A DNA stretch of 29,529 nt from Cladosporium halotolerans (Eukaryota), in NCBI RefSeq assembly GCF_011745625.1, contig NW_027191504.1, forward strand, positions 62,001 to 91,529, in the 5' to 3' direction. How positions within the stretch are numbered: the stretch's first letter is position 1; every line of letters begins with the position of its first letter. A program made the translations under genes and the position numbers. Shown piece by piece: positions 355-28,402 of the stretch. The notes beneath the pieces were generated by a model. That model was not told the origin of the DNA and ran no database searches. It saw nothing but the letters and a program-made list of their open reading frames with translations.

Positions 355-1368
355 CTACGCCTTATCAGCCGGATACCTCACACCACCCTGCCTCCTCAAA
401 TCACTCGTTACACCAATAACAATCTTCGAAATCCTCTCTAAATCCTCCGCAGCCTTAACATCCTTCTCGCCCACAATCCGCGCAAACTCCTCCGCCTCCT
501 CCTCCATATTCACCTGCGCCTTCTCGTCCCTCAGCGGCCCCGCCAGCTCCTCGCTCTTCTTCGTCCTAGGGTCCCAGTGCACCACGCTCTTAATATCCGT
601 CGTCGCATTCACACTGATCGTACCCTTCTCGCCGTACACCTCGCACGGCGCGAAGCTCTGGTAGCCCTTGGACTGGTTGATCTGCACGCCGAAGCCGTCG
701 TACTGCAGCAGCACGACGCCGCCGCCGTCGACGCCCGTCGCGCAGATGAAGGGCACGTACGACTGCGCTTTGGGCGCGCCGAAGAGCGCCACCGCGAACG
801 TGATCGGGTACACGCCGATGTCGACCAGGCTGCCGCCGCTGAAGTCGAGCGAGAAGATGTTCGGCACCTCGCCCGCGAGCACGTTGTTGTAGCGCGAGCT
901 GTAGGAGGCGTACGTCAGGCTGGCGCCGTAGATGGGGCCCAGGCGCTGCTGGTCGACGATCAGGCTGCGGAGGAGCTTGTAGTTCGCTTCCTGAATGTGC
1001 CGGAAGGCTTCGATGAGGAAGACGTTGTGCTGCTTCGCGGTCTGGAACAGGTCGTCGAGCTCCGCGGGCGTCGACGTCGCGGGCTTCTCGAGGATGACGT
1101 GCTTGCCGGCTTGCAGGAGCTGTTTGGCGTGCGCGTGGTGGTGGGAGTTCGGGGAGGCGATGTAGACTGCTTGCATGTCCTTGTCGGCAGCGAGGCCGTC
1201 GAGCGAGGTGTACAGGTTCTTGCAGCCGAATTTGGCGCCGAAGGCTTCAGCTTGCTCTTGTTTGCGCGAGTAGACGGCGTGTAGCTGCCATTGGCCTTTC
1301 TTGGAGGCGGCTTTGATGAAGGCCTCGGTGATCCAGCCGGTGCCAATTGTGCCGAAGGTGATCGCCAT
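355..1368 (-). CDS. Gfo/Idh/MocA family NAD(P)-dependent oxidoreductase (YgjR/IolU-like), 337 aa, intronless
   Basis: Rossmann start TIGTGWIT; VYIASPNSHH; family motif HVILEKPAT; GGSLVDIGVYP; strong GC3 codon bias. Confidence 0.92.
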   Translation of the reverse strand: MAITFGTIGTGWITEAFIKAASKKGQWQLHAVYSRKQEQAEAFGAKFGCKNLYTSLDGLAADKDMQAVYIASPNSHHHAHAKQLLQAGKHVILEKPATSTPAELDDLFQTAKQHNVFLIEAFRHIQEANYKLLRSLIVDQQRLGPIYGASLTYASYSSRYNNVLAGEVPNIFSLDFSGGSLVDIGVYPITFAVALFGAPKAQSYVPFICATGVDGGGVVLLQYDGFGVQINQSKGYQSFAPCEVYGEKGTISVNATTDIKSVVHWDPRTKKSEELAGPLRDEKAQVNMEEEAEEFARIVGEKDVKAAEDLERISKIVIGVTSDLRRQGGVRYPADKA

Positions 1369-2313
1369 GTTTGTAAGTGTTTGAGGGGTGCCGGGAGAGT
1401 CGATGAAGAAGATTGACTATGGAGTGTAGGTACTGGAGGGTAAGAAGGATCAGAGAAAATAGATTTGTATGTACAGGTTCACAAGAAAGCCAAAGTGTCG
1501 TCAAAGGCGTGTGGACCTTCCTCCACAACAGCAGTTGAGACTCACAAAAGTTGAAGGAAGTGGGGGGCGATGACGGAGCGCGGGGCGCCAGCTCCAAAGC
1601 TCCAGGTCAAACAGTCGACATCATTTGCAACGGAAACATTCAACTAGTGGTCGATTCGGAGTGGACTTGCGTGTTCTCTTTGTTGTTTTTGAAGACAGCC
1701 ACTGATAGTGCAAATCTAAATTTGTGATTGACTTTGTGCCAGACATCACTCTGTTCGTCTTCGTTGATATCCTCTTTTGTTGAAAGCCGCAGCCTCAATA
1801 TCAACAACTCCCTTCCCTTCGACTCATTGGACAGCCACAAGACGACATTGGGAGCGAATCGCATGCGAAATGCGCCCAGGTATACCTGCATGATCTATAC
1901 ACACAAAGCACATTGTCAAACGCATCCATAACTACCGTGAAAGATTCGAAGCAGAAGCCCAGTAAATGGCCTTAAGATTGTAAGGGTTAGGGTTGGGGCA
2001 GCCTTCCAGCGGCCACTTATCCGGAAGTTTGCAGATTGAAGGCTCACCAAACAGAGGACCAATCCTGATGGGGTAGAGCAAATGATAGAATGTCAAACGT
2101 GATAAGAAACGAAACACTTTTCAAGATCATCAAGGAGCTTTTAATGCTTCTCGGAACAGTTATTTTGCCTCATCCGCGCTCACAAAAATTTCCAAGACGC
2201 CTGCAAACTTCTAGAAAGACGATGACCTCTTCTATATCCGAGGTCGTCCCCTCATGAGAGGGTTTTCCGCACACCGGCGGCTCAGCTCGCCACATTCACA
2301 ACCGCCCACAACG

Positions 2314-4566
2314 ATGCCATCCGACACTGATCTGCCTCCATCTAAGCGACGGCGCGTGACGCGAGCTTGCGATCATTGCAAGTCTCGCAAAAGGCGTTGC
2401 AATGGGCAAAAGCCATGCGCGTACTGCACCGAGCATAGAACGAAGTGCACCTACGACGCGCCCTATACACGCGGCAAGCATGCTCAGCATCCTGCAATAC
2501 CAGATGCCAGTATTGCAGAGGTCCCAGAAATTGACGCGTCAAGTCCACGTATGGCTGGACGATGGCCGCGACTCTCTCTCTCACACACCGCGCCGGTTGT
2601 TGTGAATGATGGTGATCGCAGTGGCGTGCAAAGCAGTAGGGCAAGATCGCCCGTTGGGGGCGAGAGTGCAGGGCCTCTGGGACAGCAATACCTTGGCCCT
2701 ACATCACCTTTCTCGGTACGTTCAGATCTGTATTTGTGTCTCTCCATCTCAAGTAGTCGGCTATCTTCTGACGCCAGGCAGTTCATCCGTCGAGCGACCC
2801 GACGATTTGGCAACCTGAACGCAATTTCGACGGCAACGCTATCTGAAGAGCCAAAGAATGGAGTTTCTATCTTCAGTACTGGCGATCGACAACTTCCAGA
2901 AGTGGATGTGTCGACCATACAGCTGCCTGATGAGGCGCAATGCAAGATGTTCGTCAATCGCTATTTCGACTTTGCCATGGCAACTTATCGATTCTTGCAT
3001 CACCCAACTGTCCTCCAATGGGTTGATCGGTTACCAGGGCACAAAAATCCTCATCCGCTACCTCCAGTTCAAAAAGCGATCCTTCTCTTGGTATTTGCAA
3101 CGGGTACCTTGTACAATGTAGATGACAGCCACAACGTCTTGCCGGACAGAGACGGAGGGCGTCATCTTGCTGGTGAGCGGTACTTTCAGGCTGCGCAGAA
3201 GATCATTGCGGGCGAGACTGGTTCTTTGCAGCTGGAATCTGTCCAAGCACGGTTGGCTGCGACTCTGTACCTGCTGAACACTTCCCGTCTCAACCAGGCG
3301 TGGTACTTGTTTGGTACTACCTACCAACTGGTCATCGCCCTTGGACTCCACAGGAGAAGCGCCACTTACCAGATTCAGAAGGATTACGTTCTCTCGGAAT
3401 GTCGGAAGAGATCCTTCTGGGCGGCGTATACACTGGATGGCTACTTTAGTGTCATGCTTGGTCGGCCTCCTTTTCTGAATGATGACTTTGTTGACCAGGA
3501 GTACCCACAGCCTTTGAACGACCAAGATATCACTCCAGGGGAAATCACAAGAAAGTCCAAAGGAATCGACTGTCTCATAACGGCTTCAATCCAGCACGCA
3601 AAGCTGGCTCATGTCGTTAGAAGAGCTTCCAAAGACCAATACCTGCTTCACCAAGTCAGTGAAGAGCGCCAGATACAGACTGCGGCTCAGCTAAACAATG
3701 AAATCGCGAAGTGGCAAGATGAGCTTCCGATCTTCCTCTCTGGCGCCATTAACCCTGCCAGTCTCATTCCAGTCTTCCGTCGTCAAGTCACAGTATTGAG
3801 AATGGCGTGTGCGCATGCTATCATGCTGGTTAACAGACCCTTAATACTGAGCCGCCACGCAAAGCCTGTAGGTGTTCAGCCTCATGTTGAAGAGTGTTTA
3901 TCAGCCGCAAAGCTGATGCTCGAGTTGGTGCTCGACTTTGTGGCAGACAACCATATGTTCCAGGGGTTTTGGAAGACTCAGGTAGGCGTCACGCCCAATA
4001 TACGAGTAACTCTAACGACTGCTGACTCCTTCATAAAGTACGTCACGTTCAACGCACTTTCAATAGTCTACGTGTGGATCATTCAACGCAAAATTGGCCG
4101 GCTAGCCACCGTCCCCTCGCAATACGAAGAGTCAGACCTGTTCAACATCGCGGAAGCCGTGCAGACGCCATTAGCGAAAGCAACGCAAAGCAATGCGCCC
4201 AATCTTCGATACACCATAATACTGGGAGAGCTGCAGCGAGAAGCCAGGAGGGTCATTGCGTCAGCATCTTCCAATGGTGATCCTGGTACCTCAAGCTCTT
4301 CCGATCAAGCCGAAGCCAGCCACATAGACACCGCATCCTTGAGCGGACAGCCGCAATCGCTGGGCTCCGCTGAGTGGGACCTTGGAAGCATGGACTTCCC
4401 ACTTGATCCGAACCTGTGGATGCAGTTGGATTCGTTCCCCTTTAGTAAGTCTTTGGCTGACCGAACTCACGCGCATATTTGAGCTGACATATTGGTAGCC
4501 GACGAGCATTTTCACCAGGGTGGCTACGGGTTCTCGACAAACACAGACCTTGGTGGCACGATGTAG
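2314..4566 (+). CDS. Zn(II)2Cys6 fungal transcription factor with middle homology region, about 691 aa. Exons 2314-2715, 2782-3981, 4039-4444, 4499-4566
   Basis: Binuclear cluster ACDHCKSRKRRCNGQKPCAYCTEHRTKC; MHR motifs LGLHRR, ECRKRSFWAAYTLD, LGRP. Introns: GTACGT..CAG (2716-2781), GTAGGC..AAG (3982-4038), GTAAGT..TAG (4445-4498), each with a CTGAC branch. An alternative in-frame ATG lies at 2254. Confidence 0.9.
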
Positions 4567-4701
4567 CCAGTTGATGCATCTATCGTCTCTGGGTTCCTAC
4601 AACTGCGTGATGGATCACAATGAACGAACAAAAAGAGAGTCAGATTGTGTGGTCGTAAATTTGTATTCCCCTTCTACCTTGGTACCCAACTCCGAACAAT
4701 T

Positions 4702-7700
4702 CTATATCTTAACCATTCCTTGGAGAATATCCTGACACTCTGAGAGCACTTCCTCTAAATCTCGAGCAGCATCGACCGGCACAACATCAACCTCACTATC
4801 CTGAGCCGCCTCCAAAAGCTCAACTTGCGCATCTACCATCTCCGGCGCCATGTAATGGTCTTCCCGCAAGGAAAGTCTGGTCTTCAACTCATCCCGGCTC
4901 TCCGTCTCAAGCATGACGAAGAGTGTGCGAAAGCCAGCAATCTCCTGCAGAGTCCGCAACTCCTGGCGATAGATACTCCTCAAGGCCGAGCATGTCACAA
5001 GCACCGCAGGTGCCTTGGTGGTATTCAGACGATCGATGGCCGCGCCACGAATGTGCGCCAGCCAGCTCATGCGGTCGGCATCCGTGAGAGCGATCTGGCT
5101 CCCCATCCTCTCGCGCGCTGTTTTCGAGTGCATGTCGTCGCCTTCGATCATGGGAAGACTCAGCTTGTCCGCCAGCGCGCGAGCGATAGTCGATTTGCCG
5201 GAGCCGCAGGGGCCGCCGACGACTATCACGGCGGGTTCGTTTTCGGAGAGGCTACCAGCGGACCACTTTGCTTCCAGTGAGGAGACAATCTTGCGGATGA
5301 GACTCTTATCGATGGTCCCGGCATTCTGCAACGACGGCGAGCCGCCCTGAGCCCGAGACGTGGCGTGCGCAAGCGAGCGCCTCGGCTTGTCATTGTCGTA
5401 CTTGCTGGCGAAGAAGTCTACGAGCTTGATCGGAGGGTTCTTCGAAGGATCCGGCTCCGACGCTCGTAGCAGGCGGATCCACTCTTGCTGCGGCACTGTT
5501 TCGAATTGCAGCCCTGCCTCTCTGAGCAGGGGCAAGAGGTCTCTGGACCAGTGGAACGACTTGTCGTTCACGACGTTCATGACGCCGCTTTCGGCCCCTG
5601 AGCACGCGATCTCCGAGCACGCTTTCGCGACGACGTCGACGGGCAGCCAGTAGGGCGTTTCATCGAGCTCGGGCAGAGCGCCGACTGTCTTCGCCGTCTG
5701 GAAGATCAGAGGGATCGCTTCTGTGTTGTTCCAGACGCCGTTCTGCGTGTCGCCGATGATCTGTCCGACGCGCAGCACCCGTGTCCTGAGACCTGTCTGC
5801 CGAGACGCCCGGTCGCAGAGATGCTCCGTGACCAGCTTCGACTGCGCGTAGCCCATGCCTTGAGCGTAGCTGTACGACTCCGGCAACGCTTCCGGGACCA
5901 CATCGACTGGCGTCGCTGCCGTCGCAGAGACGGACGAGCAGAAATTGAACGAAGCGGGCTGCGGGCGCTTGGAGGCTAGGCAGAGATTCATCAGGTTCTT
6001 CGCGCCGGCGATGCAGTCGGCTTCGAAACTCTCGAGGCCTTTGTTAAAATTGACCGACCACGCGAGGTGTAGGAGGTGGGTGATGGAGCTGCTGATGTCG
6101 TCGTAGTCGCTTTGGGCGAGGCCGAGATGGGCGTCGCTGAAGTTTGAGGGCAGGGCGATGATTTTGGAGCGGCTTGGGAGCGACAACTGGTGGTAGAGTA
6201 GTCGCTCTCTGAGAGACTCGCGCACTCTGTAGCCCGCGGATTGCTTGCTGTCTGCTCGGACGAGGCAGTAGACTTTGCGGACGGATGCTTGGGTGACTAA
6301 GTTGGCGACGGCATGGGCGCCGAGAGAGCCAGTCACACCAGTGACGACCTGCAAGTGTCAGTCATGGATCGGAAGGATCAATGGATTGCTGCAACTCACG
6401 ATGTATTTCCCGTCGGCAGGATTGTTCAGGGGAACATGCTGAGGGAACTCCGCGTACTTCTCAATCATGGCCGAAATTCGATCTTCGACACCGACGACCT
6501 CGCGCTCAGGACCGCCCGACTGTAGCCGGACGATCTCGTCCGCCATTTTGCCCAAGGTTGGGAAGTCAAAGACGAAGTTGCGACCAACCTTGTCGCCATC
6601 CACCTTCAGATTCTGCAGAACGAAGCTTCGGACCTGGATGGCTTGCAAAGAGTCGACGCCGAGGCTGAAGAGGTCAGCGTCGTCACCGAGGACGACACCG
6701 GCTTTGAGGGCGACGCGTTTCTGCATCTCTGCTCGCAAAAACTCGAGCAGCTCGCTCCTTGGCAACACTAACGTCCCGGATTGCTTGTCGACGTACGCAG
6801 CATCGATTTGCTTTGCAAAGTCTCGATAGAACGCAGCGCGGATGACGGTGCCTTTGTCGGTACGGCGGTAGTCGACGTCTCGCGGCAGGACCCTGATCAT
6901 GTCCTTCGAGAGCTGGGAGTATGCTGGCATGTTTGCGTTCATTTCTTCGATCTTCGGCATGACTGCGTCAACGAGCTCTGCATCTTCAAGATTCGAGGTT
7001 GTCGTAGGAATGATGAAAGCTCCAAGACGGGCTTTGTTGGCGCCGAATACAACCGCCTCTGCGACGTTGGAATCCTGTCGGATCACACCTTCGACCAGTA
7101 AGGGGTTGGCCTTCTCGCCGTTCTCGAGCACGATGGTATCGTCCAGACGGGCGTAGTACTTCCAAGCATCCGGAATACTAGGATGAGGCTCGAAGAGATC
7201 TTTTGTAGCATACGACCCATCGTCTCTATTCGTCGCGACTTTCGAGCCCCAACCCTCCCTCACACAGAGCTCATAGAGATTCGGCCCTCTGGCCTCCATA
7301 CTGAGGTACGGCTTAAGATGCGGCGGCACGCGCATCCAGTCCCAGCCTTTATCTTGTCGGTGGTCGCGGAAAGACGTCATGAGCTGGCCGACTTCGGTAG
7401 CACCGTAGTGGCCGACGAGGTTCACGCCGCTGGCCACGAGCCTGTCGCCGATGGGCTTGGGGCACGCGGAGCCACCGAACATCACGATCTCCAGTTGGCT
7501 GAGCAGTCTGAGGCCTTCGTCTGTCTCGCTTAGGAGCTTCAGAGCGTAGGGCACGCCGTACAGGATTCGAATGTCGGGGTGCTGCTTCAGCGTTGCAAGG
7601 AGGTGTTTGCTAGCGAGAGGAAGGCGGGCATTGTAGATGTAGATCTTCTTACGCGAGTGGATTGCCCGGAACAGACAGCATATGCCATGGTTGTGGTAGA

Positions 7701-8493
7701 GGGGAAGGGTGATGTGCCCGACCAGACCGAAGTTCTGGGAGTAGGTGTACAGCGCAGCGCGGTGCGTCTGGTAGATGGGCTTCGGCAAGCCGGTTGATCC
7801 GCTCGAATGGATGATGAAGCAGATGTTGTTTGTTTCTCGGGCCGGGTCCAGAGAGGCTGATCTCAAAGTGGTGCTAGTCTCTGGAGACGATGAGGCAGCG
7901 AAGATGGTCCCGGTTTTCAGAGCCGGAATGCTTTGGGATATAATCTCTGCATTTGATGCGAAGATATTCTGATAAATGAGTGCTGTTGCTTTGGTGCTCG
8001 ACAATAAGGACTCGTAAGCTTCATCCGTTATTCTGGTCGACAGGAGCAAGGCGGAGTGACCAAGTCTGGATATGGCGAGGAATGCGACCAAGTAGTCGAG
8101 GTCGGAGTTACCCAAGAGGCCAACGACTTGCACTGGTTCGTCTGAGTGGAGTCTCTGTGGGATCCAGCTGGAGTACTTAACCGCTGCTCTCTCCACCACT
8201 TGATCCAGTTGCCGAGGAGAGTAGTCGACATAGTCGGTGCCTTCGTGTGGGTATGCAACAATGGGCTGGTCGTTGTGAAGCTGTCGTGCCCGCAGAGCAA
8301 TGAGCTCGTTGATAGTCGATGGGATGGTCTTCTCCAAGATCTCAGACGGGCTTGCTGCCACCTCAATCCTCTCAATCGTTTCAACGGCAACGTCCTTCGT
8401 CTTCAGCGGATCGCTAAGTGCGATGGGTGATAGTACGGCCGCCATTGGGGGCTTTTGACGCGGTATCGACCATGCACTGTGGACGGACGCCAT
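4702..8493 (-). CDS. NRPS-like adenylate-forming reductase (A-T-R) fused to a C-terminal gluconokinase-like domain, about 1246 aa. Exons 8493-6400 and 6348-4702
   Basis: A domain: IIHSSGSTGLPKP, YGATEVG, YATKDLF, RLDDTIVLENGEK, RTDKG. T domain: DLFSLGVDSL. R domain: VVTGVTGSLG, GYAQSK, RVGQIIGD. Kinase: GGPCGSGKST, EGDDMH, LTDADRMSWL, CSALRSIYR, HYM..QVELLE. A 51-nt intron (6399-6349, GTGAGT..CTGAC..CAG) joins the two ORFs in frame. The start could instead be the second Met (MAAVLSP, 8445). Confidence 0.9.
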
Positions 8494-8984
8494 CGCAGTT
8501 CTTAAGTGGAAGGGCCACTACCCTTAGACCATCGGACATCAACTAGGCTGTGAGGCACTTTCGAGGTCGGCGGACCAAGACATTGTGCGGGGATGGGTCG
8601 CGGATTGACGTTCGGCTGGCGGCATTCCCATTCCGCCCTTGTTTTTCCGCTCCGTCTTTTGATCCGTTCTCCTTCCGCCTTTTCCATCCAACGGAGAACC
8701 GTCAAAGCCCTAGATTTGGCACGCCACAGTGACTGAACCTGCCGACTCTATTGGAATCTCCTCACTTACGATGCGAGTACCCCAACTACTTCTCCGCATT
8801 GGTGGAGCTGGGGAATCCGGGGTGGCTCAGATGATCTGTGAGCCCGCGCTGTCATATATCAAGTGGAGTCCTTGTGCTTTGCTATCTGTCTGGCTCATCA
8901 GCTCGTCCTCAACTGTCCAAGAACGAGACTTGGCCATTGTTGTCACAGACGCTGTTACCATACCTTGAGCAACGACGAGCCAAC
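8494..8984. promoter_or_regulatory. Divergent promoter shared by the NRPS-like gene and the MFS gene, with candidate Zn2Cys6 and CreA sites
   Basis: 491 bp head-to-head gap. TCCG at 8632, 8646, 8651, 8663, 8674; CGG-N4-CCG at 8692-8701; SYGGRG matches at 8587, 8792 (rc), 8802, 8808, 8817, 8863. Confidence 0.55.
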
Positions 8985-10836
8985 ATGAACCGACAAGACA
9001 ACGAACGGGCTTCGACCCACTCGGTCGATAAAGACCTCGAGAAGGTTGACTACATTGAAGTCAGCCACAACAAGTATGCCAACCTGGGCCTGACCGCGGA
9101 GGAGACCGAATTCTACGAGAACTACCCTGAGGACAAGAGGAAGAAGATGATTCGCAAGGTCGATGTGCGCCTGGTGCCTGTGCTGGCGCTCCTATACCTG
9201 CTGGCTCATATCGACCGCGCCAACATCGGGAATGCTAAGGTAAGCTTCTTGGGATATAGTTAGCGATGAAAGCCTGTAGCTAACAATGGCCTCAATTGAT
9301 CAGATCGAGGGCATGCTCGATGACCTCAACATGAGCGGAATCCAATACAACATCGCACTGTCTATCTTCTTCATTCCCTACATTCTTCTTGAGGGTGAGT
9401 GATATGTACTGCCTAGTTTCTCTTGAGGAATGTGACTGACTCGAATGATTTGCATAGTCCCATCCAACGTTATCCTCAAGAGGTTTAAGCGGCCTTCGAC
9501 CTACATTGGCATCCTTGTCGTCTCTTGGGGCATCGTCATGACTTTCACAGGCATCGTGAAGAACTTTGCTGGCTTGATGGTCTGCCGTGTCTTACTGGGC
9601 GTAGCAGAAGCTGGTTTCTTTCCTGGTGCAGTGTATCTGATTACGAGGTGGTGAGTATCTACGAGGACACCAGAGACAAATGTGAGTCCAAGGCACTGAC
9701 TTTCTCCAATAGGTACGGCCAGCGCCAAGTTCAGACCCGTCTCGCTCTATTTTACTGTGCTTCTGCTCTATCAGGCGCTTTCTCCGGCCTTCTTGCTTTT
9801 GCAATTGCTAAGATGGATGGTGTTGGCGGCAGACCAGGCTGGGCTTGGATTTTCCTGCTGGAAGGCATTGCTACTGTCGTTGTTGGCGTGGCCTGTTTCT
9901 TCATCATGCCTGACACTCCCGCCTTGTCGGGAAGGTGGCTCACTGCCGAGGAGACCCGCTACTTCGCCATCCAGACGATCATCAAGGACGGCGGAAGGAC
10001 GACGTCAGAGAAGGCAGACAAGTTCAAGTGGTCTTACTTGATCGATCTCGTCACCGACTACAAGGTCTACCTGCAAGCTTGGATCCTCTTCACTGCCTCC
10101 GTCTGCGCTTACGGTACGTCTTCTTGATCAGCGACAGCTCGAAATCCTGCTGACACCCTCTAGGCCTTAAGTTCACAATGCCCTCGATTACAAAATCGAT
10201 GGGCTACAGCTCCTCGCAAGCTCAGCTACTGACGATCCCTCCCTACGTGGCCGGCGCGATCTCCGCTGTAACTCTCTCTAAGCTCGCGGATCGCTTCAAC
10301 TGGCGCATGCCATTCATCCTTGGCCCTATGACTTCAGTACTTGTTGGATTCTGCATCTTGCTCCCGTTGGCCAAGAACATTGAGAACCAGATCCCAGCAT
10401 GCTACATCGGCGTCATGCTCATCTGCATCGGCCAGTACCCCGTAAGGCCCCAAGAAACCTGTTACGTCAAAGAAACCACTGACAACCAGTCCAGACCAAC
10501 CCCGCAGGCAGCGCCTGGATCTCAAGCAACCTGGCCGGCGACTCCAAGCGTGCTATGGGCATCGCTCTCAACATCTGTCTCGGAAACACTGGTGGCATCC
10601 TCGGCTCTTACATGTTCCTTGACTCGGAACAGGAGCAGGGCTACCCCACAGGTTTCAGCATTGGCCTGGTGTTCGCTGCCATCACGTTGATTAGCACCGT
10701 TGTACTGGAGCTATCCTACAAGCGGATCAACAAGAAGAGGGACGCCATGAGTGACGAGGACATCAGGGCTCAGTACACGGACGAGCAGCTTGCAAGACTA
10801 GGCGACAAAAGCCCGCTGTTCAGGTACAAGCTGTGA
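8985..10836 (+). CDS. MFS transporter, anion:cation symporter (Dal5/Tna1 allantoate/nicotinate permease-like) family, about 519 aa. Exons 8985-9239, 9304-9394, 9458-9650, 9713-10113, 10164-10441, 10495-10836
   Basis: KVDVRLVP..IDRANIGNAK|IEG, EVPSN, GVAEAGFFPG..TRWY, GWAWIFLLEG, WISSNLAG, C-terminal LGDKSPLFRY. Five canonical GT-AG introns restore one continuous frame. Confidence 0.92.
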
Positions 10837-12400: not shown

Positions 12401-13778
12401 ATGACAGATCCTGGAGGCCGCGGAGACCGGATTTTGGCGGTTTTCATATTCTTCCTCGTCTTATGCACAATCGCATGTGCACTGCGCGCGTTTACCCGAA
12501 TCAAGATACAGAAGGCGTTCGGATGGGATGATCGGCTTGCGCTCTTGGCCTGGGTATACCTCATGCTTTGTGACTGATGTTCTTGCCTGTAAACTGACTT
12601 TTCTAGATGAGCTTTGTGGCCTTCTCCGCATCAGCCATCACTGGCATATACTATGGAGCAGGACAACACGTTGCGGACATCCAACCTCCAAGCAATGTTG
12701 AAATAGCGTTGAAAGTATATCAATCATGCTGCCCGAAACCATCCACATCAGTTCAGTCTCGCTAACAGATTGCAGTACTGGTGGCTCTGTCCCATACTGC
12801 TGATCACATCAAATATCATCATCAAAGCTAGCATCGGCGTCATGCTCCTGCGACTCAGCGTCCAAAAGGTTCACCGGATCCTCGTCTGTGTCAGTCTTGC
12901 AGTCCTACAGACTTACAACGTCTTCTTTCTATTCCTATTCCTATTACAATGCCAGCCGGTCGACTACTTCTGGAAAAAGGCTGCCGGCGGAGTGGGCTCT
13001 TGTATCAACCCTCGCATCATTAGCATTGCTTATTACGGCTATTCCGCCATTGCATGCGTGACGGACTGGATCTTCGCGACCCTTCCAGCTTTCTTCGTCT
13101 GGCAATTACAGATAAGTGGACGAGAAAAGGCTTCAGTCATCCTGATCCTAGCGACAGGCGCATTGTAAGTATCTGGTGATTGGTCTGCCCACCAGGCTCT
13201 CCTTCACTCTTCTACAGATTCTAGGAACGGTCTCACTGAGACATCATCGCAGGGCTTCTATGGCGACGATCGCCCGCATTCCTTACATCTCGCAACGGGA
13301 GAACACAGACGACTTTCTCCACTCAACCATTGAACTCGCCGTCTGGAGCGACTGCGAGCTCGGCTTGGCTCTGACGGCCGTCTGTTGCGCCACCCTTCGT
13401 CCACTCTTCCGCGCAATCTTCCCACCCTCCGCCTGCACATCTGGTGACCCGGTAGCCGATGGCGCCTCACAACGGGCGATTTTGCCTCCCCAAGTCAGTG
13501 CACCCGACCAGGCTCAGCAAAGACGCTATAGGGCCAGTTGCCCCGATTTCGAAAATGTGGAGATGGGAGAAGTCAGGCAAGCGCCCGACTTCGGCACCAT
13601 CACCATGGTGTGGCATCCGAAAACTCCACGACTGAATGAGGCGAATGACGACGCTGGAAGCAGCCATTCATCGGCGAATGTCATCAACCACAAAGTTTCG
13701 TTCTACCGATCTGAGGATGTCGCTGACGCGACGAATGAGTTCTCGCAGCAGCAAAATCGACCGCGGTCTGATGTCTGA
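12401..13778 (+). CDS. PTH11-like (fungal rhodopsin-domain) 7TM integral membrane protein without CFEM, about 391 aa. Exons 12401-12553, 12607-12714, 12776-13164, 13253-13778
   Basis: LRAFTRI..FGWDD, YGAGQH, IKASIG..LLRL, QCQPVDYFW, TDWIFATLP..VWQLQ, WSDCELGL..CCATLRPLF; three canonical introns. Confidence 0.88.
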
Positions 13779-19525: not shown

Positions 19526-21676
19526 ATGAGTGGTGGGTTTGCAAAAAACCACCTGACCGCTGCCTCACTTCACCCACCAGGCCTAACCGTTTCTCAGGCA
19601 GAGGCGCGGCCCGCGGGCGTGGCAGAGGCGCCTTCTACAAAGCCAAGTACGGTGGCGGCGGCGCACGAGGCGGCCATCAGAACCACGCCAATGGGACCGA
19701 GACTCCCGCGGCCACACCACACGCCGGCCCACGCGACTGGGATCAGCTGCAGCGCGACCTGAGGAGTATCGACGGTCAGCAATACGGTGAGTGGCCCTCT
19801 TCTGTCACCTCGACATGAGGTATCCTCCCTTTCCACCCAAGCATCAAGTTCTGTCCCCGATGACGTAGCGTGTTGCTTGTTCAGCCAACGTTTAAGCGGC
19901 GTCGCTGATCTCTAACGTCCTCCTCAGGCGCCTACAAGCGATTGCTCGGCCGATACGACCATGCCGGCCCCTCTTTCGCCCTCTCTGTCGATCACGTCCA
20001 AGGCGATGCATATGCCGCGCCGTCTCGCGTGCGGGCGGTGATGCCCCTGGCCCAGACCGGCTTCCCGTCGGGATATCTGCAGTCAGAAATCCGACGTGTC
20101 GCCCTGTGTGACTACGTGACGAGGACAGCTGCGTCTATTATCCGGGACAAGCATCTCGACAGGAATGTGGGCGGCGGAAACGGAGGCTGGAGCTCACCCA
20201 AGGGAGGCGCGTTTAATATCAATGCGCCCGGACAGGAAGTGCTTCCGCGTACCAGCGCAATCGTTAGCGGCGATGAAACCATCGAGCTTCGATTCACCGT
20301 CGCTTTGCCAGCGGCGGGTAGGACTGTTCTTGGTCAACAAGCTAACCAGATCCTTGCCATCAACCTAGTCGAATTGATCAAGAACACCCTACTCCACGGC
20401 AATCTTGACGAGAAGAAGCTGGCTTTGCACATTTCTTCGGTTGAGAACCAGCACCATCTGCGCCAACAGCTTAGTGCGAACAATCTGATCGCCTTCGTCG
20501 CCAATGGCTCCATCCTTCCTCGCGCATCAGGCGCGTCTGCCACGCCAATGCTTGACAATAGCGTGGTGCCCTTCCAATCCCCACCTGAACTGTCAGTGAC
20601 CCTGACGCAAGCCGACGGCGTTGCCGTCTCCGGTATGGGCATCCCCAAAGGCATCACCCTCCTCACCGGCGGCGGCTTCCACGGCAAATCGACCCTCCTC
20701 GAAGCCCTCGAGCTCGGCGTCTACGACCACATCCCCACCGACGGCCGCGAGCGCATCGTCACCGACCCATCCGCCGTCAAAATCCGCGCCGAGGACGGCC
20801 GCCCAGTCACCGGCGCCGACATCAGCCCCTTCATCTCCACGCTCCCCGGCGGCAAAGACCCCAAGCGCTTCTCCACCGACGACGCCTCGGGCTCCACCTC
20901 CATGGCCGCCAACATCCAGGAAGCGCTCGAGGCCGGCAGCACCTCGCTGCTGATCGACGAGGACTCGTCCGCCACCAACCTGCTCGTGCGCGACGCCCGC
21001 ATGCAGGCCCTCATCCAGAACGAGCCCATCACGCCGCTCGTCAGCAAGGTCCGCGCGCTCTACGCCCAGCACGGCGTCAGTACCGTCATGGTCGTCGGCG
21101 GGCTGGGCGACTGGCTCAGCGTCGCGGACACCGTCATCGCAATGGACTACTACGTGCCGCGCCTCATCACGTCGCAGGTGGAAGACGTGCTGCGGCAGTT
21201 CCCCAGCGACGTCGCGCAGGACGCGCAGTACGGCTCCGTCCCGCAGCGAGCCGTCCAGGTCCAAGTCCCAGGCGAAATCTCGCCGTACACGGCTAGCAGG
21301 TCGTTCATCAATATCAAGCCCGCGGTCAGGAATCCCGTCGCGGACCCCGCGCAGGCGCCGCAGGGGATTGACCTGCAGGGCCTCGATCAGCTGGTTGAGG
21401 TCGGGCAGGCGAGGATGATCGCTGCGACGGTGCAGCGGTTCGGGAGGGCTACGGAGGGCAAGCCGTGAGTTGAGAATAATTGGGCTCTACGGGTGACAAT
21501 TTTGCTGACTGACACTTCACAGAGTGGATCTGAAATCCCTCCTCGCGACGCTGGAAGAGGAAGTCAATCTCGACCAGGACATGCCTGCTACGCTTAGTGG
21601 AGGCGAGCTCGTGGCTGTGAGGAAGTATGAGGTCGCGGCGGCGCTTTCGCGTTTGAGGGGCTTGAGGGTCGCTTAG
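19526..21676 (+). CDS. Predicted ABC-class ATPase (COG3044 / MRB1590-like), about 628 aa. Exons 19526-19532, 19598-19786, 19928-21464, 21523-21676
   Basis: N-domain LRSIDGQQY|GAYKRLLG..DHVQGDAYAAPSR; FVANGSILPRASG; Walker A GGGFHGKST; KIRAEDGR; ASGSTSMAANIQEALE; Walker B LLIDEDSSATN; EPITP; C-terminal RKYEVAAALSRLRGL recovered by splicing 21465-21522. Confidence 0.87.
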
Positions 21677-27337: not shown

Positions 27338-28330
27338 TCATACAGGGGAGGCGCGCGAGCTGCGTTTGTAGTTGTCACTCGTGTCCACCATCGCCACATC
27401 TGCAGACTCGCGCGAGCTCGAGTCAACATTGTTCTTCCATCTTCTCGGCTCCAAGTCGCCAATGTACCACGTGGCGAAGATGACCATGACAGCAGCCATC
27501 AGTAGAGCATCCATAATGTAGATGAAGACTTCGTGCGAGATCAGATATCCATCATTGCCTTGCAAGTATTCGACGACACGGAAGATGCTGCGGATGAGGA
27601 TAAGTGTACTCGTGGTGTACAGGACATAAAGGTGCCGCTTCCACGGCACGCGACCCCTGAGAGACTGGCTAGTCGGCGACTTCTGCATGCGCGTGTGGAA
27701 AAGGACGCTGGTGGCGACAAAGAAGCCGAAAATCGCGATCTGCACGAAGAGACCGGCGATAATGATCTTTTCCCCCAGCTCATACATGTCCAGCGTTCCG
27801 GATGATTGGATGCCGCCGCCAGCTGCTTGCAGGCTGAACGCGATCACGTCGCCGGTGACGAAGATCTTTGTGACCCATTTGTTAGGGATGAGCGAGAGGT
27901 GTTCGGCTCCCAGAGCACGGATGAGTCGGCCGAGGATCATATAGATTGAAGCGGCGAAGAGAGCTGGGCTGACGAGGATCAGGATTGCCTGCATGACGAA
28001 TCCTCCGATGGCATCTTGGTTGAAGTGCGACCAGATTCGTCCGCAATAACCGACTGTCTGAACTATAAGCATGTAGCAAGTCAGTATACAATGTGCTTGC
28101 ATGCTTTGAAGGCCTGAATCAGACGATCTCATACATATGCCACCGATCAAAAATGGTGTGAAGTAGTATGCTCGAGCTTTCTTGAGAAGCCATCCGTGGA
28201 GCGCCGTGAGAATGCCAAAGACTATGACAGCGACGATCGCTGCCGGTAATGAAGGATTGTAACGGTAAAGCTTGAAGTCGAAGTATTCGGAATTGGCCTC
28301 AGTGGCCGAGGAAGCGTCATTGGAAGCCAT
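27338..28330 (-). CDS. RTA1-like (lipid-translocating exporter family) 7TM protein, about 306 aa. Exons 28330-28135 and 28062-27338
   Basis: LYRYNPSLPAA, PALFAASIYMILGR, KIFVTGDVIAFSLQAAGGG, LILIRSIFRVVEY, HEVFIYIMDA. A 72-nt in-frame intron (28134-28063, GTATGA..CTGAC..TAG) gives GGIF|QTVGY. Confidence 0.93.
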   Translation of the reverse strand: MASNDASSATEANSEYFDFKLYRYNPSLPAAIVAVIVFGILTALHGWLLKKARAYYFTPFLIGGICMRSSDSGLQSMQAHCILTCYMLIVQTVGYCGRIWSHFNQDAIGGFVMQAILILVSPALFAASIYMILGRLIRALGAEHLSLIPNKWVTKIFVTGDVIAFSLQAAGGGIQSSGTLDMYELGEKIIIAGLFVQIAIFGFFVATSVLFHTRMQKSPTSQSLRGRVPWKRHLYVLYTTSTLILIRSIFRVVEYLQGNDGYLISHEVFIYIMDALLMAAVMVIFATWYIGDLEPRRWKNNVDSSSRESADVAMVDTSDNYKRSSRASPV

Positions 28331-28402
28331 TGCGAGTAGTTATTACGGATTGCAGAGAGGTCAACGCAGTTTGTTGAAGATGTCCTGGTATAACAAAAGC
28401 AG

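Follow-up and report, generated by a model that had tools for sequence, protein, structure and literature searches.

Carboxylic acid reductases (CARs), which are valued as biocatalysts, follow the logic of an adenylation (A), a carrier (T) and an NADPH-dependent thioester reductase (R) domain, and the fungal A-T-R-R glycine betaine reductase carries behind these a further catalytic domain at its C-terminus, which works on the product once it has been released. The gene described here lies in a 29,529-nucleotide stretch of Cladosporium halotolerans (contig NW_027191504.1, positions 62,001 to 91,529; the whole stretch is called the window) and encodes an A-T-R protein in which the extra domain is a gluconokinase-type kinase, where the glycine betaine enzyme has a second reductase. 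The architecture has been on record since 2014, when the Aspergillus flavus protein AFLA_054270 (1251 aa) was given as 'A-T-R-gntK' in Table 2 of PMC4073137, under SMURF cluster 18. This protein and its orthologues have the same four domains as the window protein (41 clusters share the Pfam set), and they are only entries in lists, with no function assigned. The original prediction, made from the letters of the window, knew of no characterised enzyme built in this way; we likewise found none in the literature searched, but the architecture itself was already documented. Aspergillus members are 44-52% identical to the window protein in the kinase part and 49-55% identical in the reductase-kinase (R-K) part. 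Relatives and neighbouring genes together suggest that the gene helps the fungus to feed on sugar-derived acids by an undescribed route.

The gene consists of two exons separated by a short intron:

4702..8493, minus strand: A-T-R-gluconokinase gene, two exons, 1246 aa (open reading frame (ORF), Pfam and NCBIfam evidence, and spliced contigs from three runs of three studies)
6400..8493, minus strand: exon 1, adenylation and carrier domains, 698 aa; start at 8493 or 8445
6349..6399, minus strand: intron, 51 nt, GT..AG, phase 0, skipped by contigs of runs X1, X3 and X8

Two minus-strand ORFs (6358-8517 and 4702-6357) abut at 6357/6358, and the intron between the exons is of the typical short fungal kind, with GTGAGT at 6399, a CTGAC branch-like site, a CAG ending at 6349 and an in-frame TGA. 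Exon 2 (6348-4705, minus strand) encodes 548 aa and is closed by a TAG stop codon at 4704-4702. The spliced product of 1246 aa (698 + 548 aa across the 51-nt phase-0 intron) is the one originally predicted, and the reductase does run into the kinase within one exon-2 frame, with zero stops, frameshifts or splice signals between them in the window sequence. The candidate start codons are the ATG at 8493 and the next ATG at 8445; the spliced contigs extend only to about 8377. A database protein, P0304, is 98% identical over 98% of exon 1.

Contigs of four runs from four studies (X1, X3, X4 and X8) were aligned on positions 4600-8600. None of these runs is recorded as RNA, and splicing was judged from an exact intron-less joint; most of the aligned pieces are 95-99% identical to the window, which marks their sources as close relatives of another strain, and such contigs cannot show transcript ends. 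The exact 51-base skip, GT..AG on the coding strand, is present in contigs of three of the four runs (X1, X3 and X8), while those of the fourth, X4, retain the intron. The X8 contig of 3543 nt joins 4652-6346 to 6398-8245 and reaches from past the stop codon through the kinase, reductase and carrier into most of the adenylation domain; an X1 contig joins 4675-6346 to 6398-6644. No joint or loose end was seen at the reductase-kinase boundary in the aligned contigs, and single spliced pieces crossing both this junction and the intron were found for X1, X3 and X8. The A-T-R-kinase gene is a real, transcribed fungal gene, whose spliced form spans the R-kinase junction.

Pfam and NCBIfam profiles, applied to the spliced 1246-aa protein, divide it as follows:

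6787..8139, minus strand: adenylation domain (AMP-binding and AMP-binding_C_3, Pfam), with the motifs SSGSTGLPK, YGATE, YATKDLF, ARLDDTIVLENGEKANP and RTDKGT
6535..6696, minus strand: carrier (T) domain (PP-binding), with the phosphopantetheine Ser615 of GVDSL at 6649-6651
5275..6348, minus strand: thioester reductase (R) domain, with VTGVTGSLG as Rossmann motif and with YAQSK; similar in fold to 8aep and 4u7w
5227..5274, minus strand: R-kinase linker, short, the sole dip in model confidence, variable among strains
4726..5226, minus strand: GntK/IdnK-type gluconokinase domain, with the Walker A motif GPCGSGKS at 5191-5214; TIGR01313; fold match 1knq

The adenylation domain was matched by AMP-binding at 2.1e-32 and by AMP-binding_C_3 at 1.4e-38, and its core motifs are present and conserved, including the last, which bears the catalytic lysine. 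PP-binding scored 24.7 bits against a Pfam cut-off of 20.8, and the GVDSL motif is conserved in all clades compared. In exon 2, NAD_binding_4 (5.5e-42) is followed by a P-loop kinase match (AAA_33); TIGR01746 gave 185 bits on the R domain, under its cut-off of 213.35. The kinase passed the model for 'gluconokinase, GntK/IdnK-type', TIGR01313, with 137.1 bits against a cut-off of 113.75, and the match spans positions 1-161 of the 164 in the profile. It stays below the equivalog models of the E. coli enzymes (95 and 85 bits against cut-offs of 265 and 304). The fusion of A-T-R to an intact GntK-type kinase that had been read from the window sequence is thus borne out by the AMP-binding, PP-binding, NAD_binding_4 and TIGR01313 matches, and every motif named at that time is there: the Walker A GPCGSGKS at 5214-5191, GDDMH, LTDADR..WL, CSAL...YR, HYM....V.AQ...LE, YAQSK and GVDSL. 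Judged by sequence, the protein is an A-T-R carboxylate reductase of the nonribosomal peptide synthetase (NRPS)-like kind, with an adenylation domain, a carrier and a terminal reductase of the short-chain dehydrogenase/reductase (SDR) type. It shares its adenylation-carrier-thioester reductase logic with CARs such as the Neurospora crassa carboxylate reductase (R domain, 8aep), but unlike these it has an extra C-terminal kinase, scores far under the cut-off of the bacterial CAR model and has an A domain remote from solved enzymes. Two more specific assignments were rejected: Lys2 alpha-aminoadipate reductase (TIGR03443) gave 94.3 bits against a cut-off of 1030.1, on the R domain only, and the bacterial CAR model NF041592 gave 30 bits against 1300.

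Among the related strains of the aligned contigs, the region of the R-kinase linker (5227-5290) is the most variable stretch, and substitutions cluster there at 5241-5243 and 5279-5280. In one X4 contig a single base is deleted at 5280, and an insertion behind 5283 restores the frame. Of 28 single-base differences listed between 4876 and 6198, 15 are synonymous and 13 non-synonymous when neighbouring changes within one codon are counted singly; we draw no inference from this ratio.

The kinase domain was compared, as one of 51 fused domains, with 126 other kinases, in which 23 positions carry their commonest residue at 80% or more. The fused domains have the same commonest residue at all 23 positions, and in at least 90% of them at 18. 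The conserved positions include G23, G26, G28 and K29, D48 and H51 of the GDxxH motif, D69, R70 and W73 of DxDRxxW, CSAL97-100, R105, R135, R139, H142, Q152 and E157. The window kinase keeps the family residue at 19 of the 23 and differs by K58R, G62Q, S151A and P159A, and the G....GK[ST] Walker A motif is intact in 40 of 41 fused proteins. Three solved gluconokinases match the domain over the full length of their own sequences, the best being the Sinorhizobium enzyme 3t61 (4.8e-22), with E. coli GntK (1knq) at 5.6e-19. Exon 2 was modelled with AlphaFold2 from 34 aligned sequences, and the model reached a mean predicted local distance difference test score (pLDDT) of 92.3 and a predicted template-modelling score (pTM) of 0.89, with its sole dip at the linker. 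In this model the kinase half superimposes on E. coli GntK 1knq with a template-modelling (TM) score of 0.88 and a root-mean-square deviation of 2.4 Å over 174 columns, and the R half matches the N. crassa carboxylate reductase R domain 8aep (E 2.5e-22, 27% identity) and also the myxalamid R domain 4u7w. The high pTM is at most a hint of a fixed R-K pair. The window kinase thus resembles E. coli GntK (1knq, 1ko5, 1ko8) and 3t61 in sequence, fold and P-loop, but it differs from them in being fused behind a reductase and in residues conserved specifically in the fused clade (C25, Y143, M148, V149 and D165), with G62 relaxed.

A FastTree phylogeny of 177 kinase domains places every one of the 51 domains from known fusions in a single clade of 62 rows (support 98). 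The other 11 rows of this clade are short, kinase-only proteins; we take three of them, P0042, P0043 and P0046, for fragments because their contigs are only 1.1-6.5 kb long. In a second, midpoint-rooted version with 15 named sequences added, the sister group (support 89) of the fused clade (support 97) comprises 39 rows, which include all five named fungal stand-alone gluconokinases and none of the ten named bacterial ones. Other GntK-type kinases in the representative protein library are fused to an FtsJ methyltransferase (P0095), to a GntR/FCD regulator (P0139) and to a HAD hydrolase (P0148).

The fusion is widespread in fungi. When proteins between 960 and 2740 aa long were searched with the kinase part, 41 clusters matched at 39-60% identity, each of them with AMP-binding and NAD_binding_4 in its precomputed annotation. 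They belong to Aspergillus, Penicillium, Talaromyces, Verticillium, Plectosphaerella, Parathielavia and Saxophila; many are named 'gluconokinase' (UniRef) or 'NRPS-like enzyme'. In a representative library of 1.8 billion proteins, NAD_binding_4 lies upstream of the kinase in 10 of the 26 mid-length or top matches scanned. Of the 111 relatives that are 930 aa or longer, 59 carry the complete kinase, two a partial one and 50 none, the kinase-bearing ones spanning Eurotiomycetes, Sordariomycetes and Dothideomycetes. The architecture is thus shared by other fungi (at least 59 of the 111), and the observation that the original prediction had named as telling against it, orthologues that generally lack the kinase, was made in part. 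A complete R-domain match is found in 46 of the 50 kinase-less relatives, and 44 of the 46 end 6-18 aa past it, so that these proteins are genuine short forms; the reductase-to-kinase spacing in kinase-bearing forms is only about 15 residues.

Kinase-bearing and kinase-less members are interleaved in the A-T-R tree (102 rows, FastTree, midpoint root), with at least nine changes of the kinase-bearing label and at least eight of the kinase-less one. The window A-T-R groups with kinase-bearing proteins of Saxophila, Elsinoe and one Aureobasidium melanogenum, and also with kinase-less Mycosphaerellaceae (Fulvia, Zasmidium, Cercospora, Pseudocercospora and Dothistroma; 61-70% identity in the A-T part). 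Kinase-bearing members occur in both deep A-T-R clades, and the kinase tree shows the major groupings again. The simplest reading is that a duplicated fungal gluconokinase was fused once, long ago, and then lost repeatedly; shuffling of domains among paralogues is a possible alternative. Two Aspergillus section Nigri models, P0041 (A. carbonarius) and P0380 (A. eucalypticola), have incomplete kinases. One stops after CSALRTVHRD, and the other is without internal segments and retains the C-terminal HYM...SQL..LE; both look more like missed coding segments than like decay.

The adenylation domain offers some clues to the substrate. It is only remotely like solved adenylating enzymes, the best match being 4-chlorobenzoate:CoA ligase at 42.7 bits, and it has the 'PLYH' motif of acyl-CoA ligases, not the Asp-bearing motif of amino-acid-activating domains. 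The pocket of that ligase is formed by what we take to be F184, H207, F249, A280, I303, G305, M310 and N311. In a low-scoring alignment, and with this presumed list, the counterparts of these positions in the window protein are T, H, Y, G, H, G, G and Q, which suggests a more polar and roomier pocket than that of the ligase. Two putative pocket motifs, TLPLYHNHG and GHYGATE(V/T)GQLMTSFR, hardly vary among the five clades compared, with or without the kinase, and for this reason one substrate class is suggested for the whole A-T-R family.

Three neighbouring genes bear on the role of the enzyme:

2215..4482, plus strand: Zn2Cys6 transcription factor, convergent neighbour, putative pathway regulator
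8985..10833 (ends approximate), plus strand: multi-exon major facilitator superfamily (MFS) transporter of the anion:cation symporter type, best match TIGR00893, putative acid transporter
355-1416, minus strand: GFO/IDH/MocA oxidoreductase, best NCBIfam matches inositol 2-dehydrogenase and D-xylose 1-dehydrogenase

The transporter gene is divergent from the A-T-R-kinase gene across about 490 bp, and its best NCBIfam match, TIGR00893 (family 2.A.1.14, 'D-galactonate transporter'), belongs to the anion:cation symporter group. This group also includes bacterial glucarate and galactarate permeases. Farther out lie the GFO/IDH/MocA sugar-type oxidoreductase, which could be a partner in a sugar-acid pathway, and an SDR. 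A metagenome scan confirmed at least two further loci (L001 and L002) among 597 pattern matches. L001 encodes the whole A-T-R-kinase as one intronless frame of 1254 codons, 50% identical to the window enzyme, in a different gene order. Its Zn2Cys6 factor is 35% identical to that of the window over 709 aa (E 2e-115), and its MFS transporter is of the same family (100 bits on TIGR00893) and colinear with the window MFS exons. A second MFS-like stretch, similar to the window transporter, lies upstream of the L001 enzyme on the opposite strand (3837-4199, minus strand), so that two such transporters may flank the enzyme gene there. Downstream, L002 has only unrelated genes. Because the linkage survives rearrangement at 50% enzyme identity, the comparison with L001, our one informative locus, speaks for regulator, transporter and enzyme forming one unit that serves an imported organic anion.

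A physiological clue comes from Aspergillus niger. The available excerpts of Kuivanen et al. 2016 (PMC5153877) give about 8700-fold induction of gene 39114 on galactaric acid, from 0.6 to 5497 fragments per kilobase per million (FPKM). Its deletion fully stops consumption of this acid, which makes the gene essential for galactaric acid catabolism. It is annotated there as an AMP-dependent synthetase with alpha-aminoadipate-semialdehyde dehydrogenase, the A-T-R type, and the authors proposed carboxyl-group reduction. Since 2016 it has been used to block galactaric acid breakdown in production strains (PMC5153877, PMC6353982, PMC12076931), and reviews of 2019 and 2025, in their accessible parts, describe the fungal galactaric acid pathway as undescribed and the function of 39114 as still open (PMC6353982, PMC12076931). 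The gene is 3246 bp long (JGI ATCC 1015 v4), too short to include a kinase domain. One of its ORF-check primers encodes the peptide ELVCLD, which occurs exactly, at one aligned position (385-388), in the kinase-less P0384, P0386 and P0400, and with one mismatch in at least nine further proteins, of which five, from A. oryzae, A. parasiticus, A. melleus, Rasamsonia and Thermoascus, share the kinase-less clade. The reverse-primer peptide is one residue off A. brunneoviolaceus P0412. This clade lies in a deep clade (support 100) with kinase-bearing proteins of Verticillium, Parathielavia and Cryomyces. On this indirect evidence, 39114 looks like a derived, kinase-less member of the A-T-R(-kinase) family: its annotation is of the A-T-R type, it appears to be of the AMP-binding_C_3 family, and the clade to which it seems to belong has the pocket motifs.

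In the same excerpts (PMC5153877) the fourth most strongly induced gene on galactaric acid is another AMP-dependent synthetase, 1082594, which goes from 0.016 to 50.5 FPKM (about 3060-fold); it is located at chr_202 3700736-3704529, beside an induced aldo/keto reductase gene (1082229) and near a Zn2Cys6 factor. Its length of 3794 bp is the size needed by a 1247-aa A-T-R-kinase with one short intron, which makes it a candidate by length alone. The neighbours of 39114 are a co-induced small gene and, two genes away, a constitutive Zn2Cys6 factor; the gene table in the accessible part of the article gives no MFS gene adjacent to 39114, so no three-gene module is seen there.

The reading we prefer, and to which we give about an even chance, is that the window gene encodes a catabolic enzyme, made on induction, whose reductase part acts on a carboxyl group of a sugar-derived acid and whose kinase part phosphorylates the resulting aldonic acid; its substrate and the order of the steps are what we infer. 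We favour a catabolic role because the domains and motifs are intact, the linkage to an acid transporter and a regulator is conserved, and the apparent family member 39114 acts in galactaric acid catabolism. The sugar or polyhydroxy acid of the original prediction is supported indirectly by the same neighbours and by 39114, and its substrate and reaction order stay at the level of proposals. The neighbouring transporter would import the acid and the Zn2Cys6 factor would control the genes. The adenylation domain would activate a carboxyl of a polar sugar-derived acid with ATP, the leading candidate being an aldaric acid (D-glucarate or galactarate), and the acyl group would be loaded onto the phosphopantetheine arm of the carrier domain. 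The R domain would release the aldehyde with NADPH, further reduction to the alcohol being the task of the R domain or of another reductase, and the fused kinase, presumably an active descendant of a fungal gluconokinase, would phosphorylate the terminal hydroxyl of the aldonic acid and so deliver it to central metabolism. In the glucarate version, the C6-carboxyl of D-glucarate would be reduced to give L-guluronate and then D-gluconate, which would be phosphorylated to 6-phosphogluconate, so that the phosphorylated carbon is the reduced carbon, and the product would enter the pentose phosphate pathway. Kinase-less members such as 39114 would be derived forms: the product from galactarate would be a galactonate, a poorer fit to a gluconokinase, and this could explain kinase loss in a galactarate-specialised paralogue. 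To the aldaric acid version we give clearly less than an even chance, and likewise to the possibility that the family is the entry enzyme of an undescribed reductive aldaric acid pathway of fungi, in which one ancestral kinase-bearing polypeptide takes the diacid to 6-phosphogluconate.

Several observations weigh against a coupled catabolic enzyme. Oxidoreductase activity of 39114 on galactarate was not detected in yeast extract, in a test that the accessible text describes without mention of ATP or a phosphopantetheinyl transferase (PMC5153877), and the gene was placed in the family by its annotation, its length of 3246 bp and a six-residue match, not by its sequence. A gluconate-type kinase is not obviously fitted to a galactarate-derived product. 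The kinase has been lost repeatedly and is absent from 50 of the 111 relatives, which makes the reductase-kinase coupling dispensable, to judge from these proteins. The kinase and A-T-R trees are both FastTree trees with midpoint roots, and no counterpart of the GFO/IDH/MocA neighbour was found in L001. The A. flavus orthologue AFLA_054270 is nearly silent on potato dextrose agar, at 0.1 reads per kilobase per million (PMC4073137, accessible part); such silence fits an inducible gene and proves nothing. A biochemical characterisation of the A-T-R-kinase architecture or family was not found in the full-text literature, a body that leaves most subscription journals outside.

Of the other explanations, the one that survives best, though we think it unlikely, keeps both activities in one pathway at non-consecutive steps, with the A-T-R part acting early, separate enzymes in between and the kinase phosphorylating free D-gluconate at the end. 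The fungal D-glucuronate pathway ends in just this way, with a gluconokinase, EC 2.7.1.12 (PMC6353982, accessible part). The full gluconokinase residue set is kept here, in a kinase from the fungal gluconokinase lineage, and the frequent kinase loss would be easily explained if a stand-alone kinase substitutes. A fixed pair is hinted at instead by the shortness of the linker and by the confidence of the R-K model as one unit, but the data do not separate this explanation from direct coupling.

That the protein is the backbone enzyme of a secondary-metabolite cluster, with a kinase acting on an alcohol or aldehyde hydrate of a natural product, is distinctly unlikely, even if the names given to the family point that way: AFLA_054270 stands in SMURF 'cluster 18' (PMC4073137), orthologues are called 'putative NRPS-like protein biosynthetic cluster' or 'ascB like', and some structural neighbours of the R domain are natural-product reductases. 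The scanned ORFs of the window and of L001 yielded no further backbone gene of secondary metabolism, and the neighbours common to both are an acid transporter and a regulator. The kinase retains the residues of a sugar-acid kinase, the mapped pocket positions are polar or small in the low-scoring alignment with the presumed ligase list, and the apparent family member 39114 acts in the catabolism of a growth substrate (PMC5153877).

The reverse order, in which an aldonic acid such as gluconate is phosphorylated first and the carboxyl of the phospho-acid is then activated and reduced to a sugar phosphate, strikes us as quite improbable. The domain set permits it, both reactions being possible on one molecule with a free carboxylate, but 6-phosphogluconate already enters the pentose phosphate pathway, so that by our reasoning the extra ATP and NADPH would have no clear use, and kinase-less orthologues with the same pocket motifs would need a stand-alone kinase to supply their substrate. 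Very improbable indeed is a non-catalytic sensor or decaying module, the former once suggested for this kinase as a ligand sensor: the kinase is lost in many lineages and incomplete in the two Nigri models, but both of these resemble missed coding segments, the Walker A motif is almost always intact, the catalytic and family-conserved residues are as frequent in fused domains as in stand-alone kinases or more so, and the confident model has the GntK fold, so that a sensor or dead domain is unlikely.

Elsewhere in the window, two adjacent frames at 12713-13778 carry the fungal rhodopsin-type membrane domain PF20684 and are probably one gene with an intron. A long plus-strand frame at 19909-21468 has ABC_N and ABC_ATPase P-loop domains (5.8e-116); around it, over 18-24 kb, the G+C content is 0.61-0.66, against about 0.52 near the A-T-R-kinase gene. 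A gene for an RTA1-like membrane protein lies at 27338-28339.

The kinds of component domains were already known, and the fusion was visible in databases and in one table of 2014. New here are the evidence that the kinase is intact, expressed, anciently fused and repeatedly lost, the conserved linkage to a transporter and a regulator, and the proposed tie to a fungal aldaric acid pathway. In the literature searched we found no characterised CAR with a built-in kinase, and a 'reduce then phosphorylate' unit in one protein would be a new coupling of steps in sugar-acid metabolism. Cluster predictors routinely include the A-T-R(-kinase) family among their secondary-metabolite 'backbone' enzymes, and a catabolic role would correct these counts. 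If the proposal is true, A. niger 39114 would gain a testable biochemical role, and the first fungal pathway for aldaric acids would be defined.

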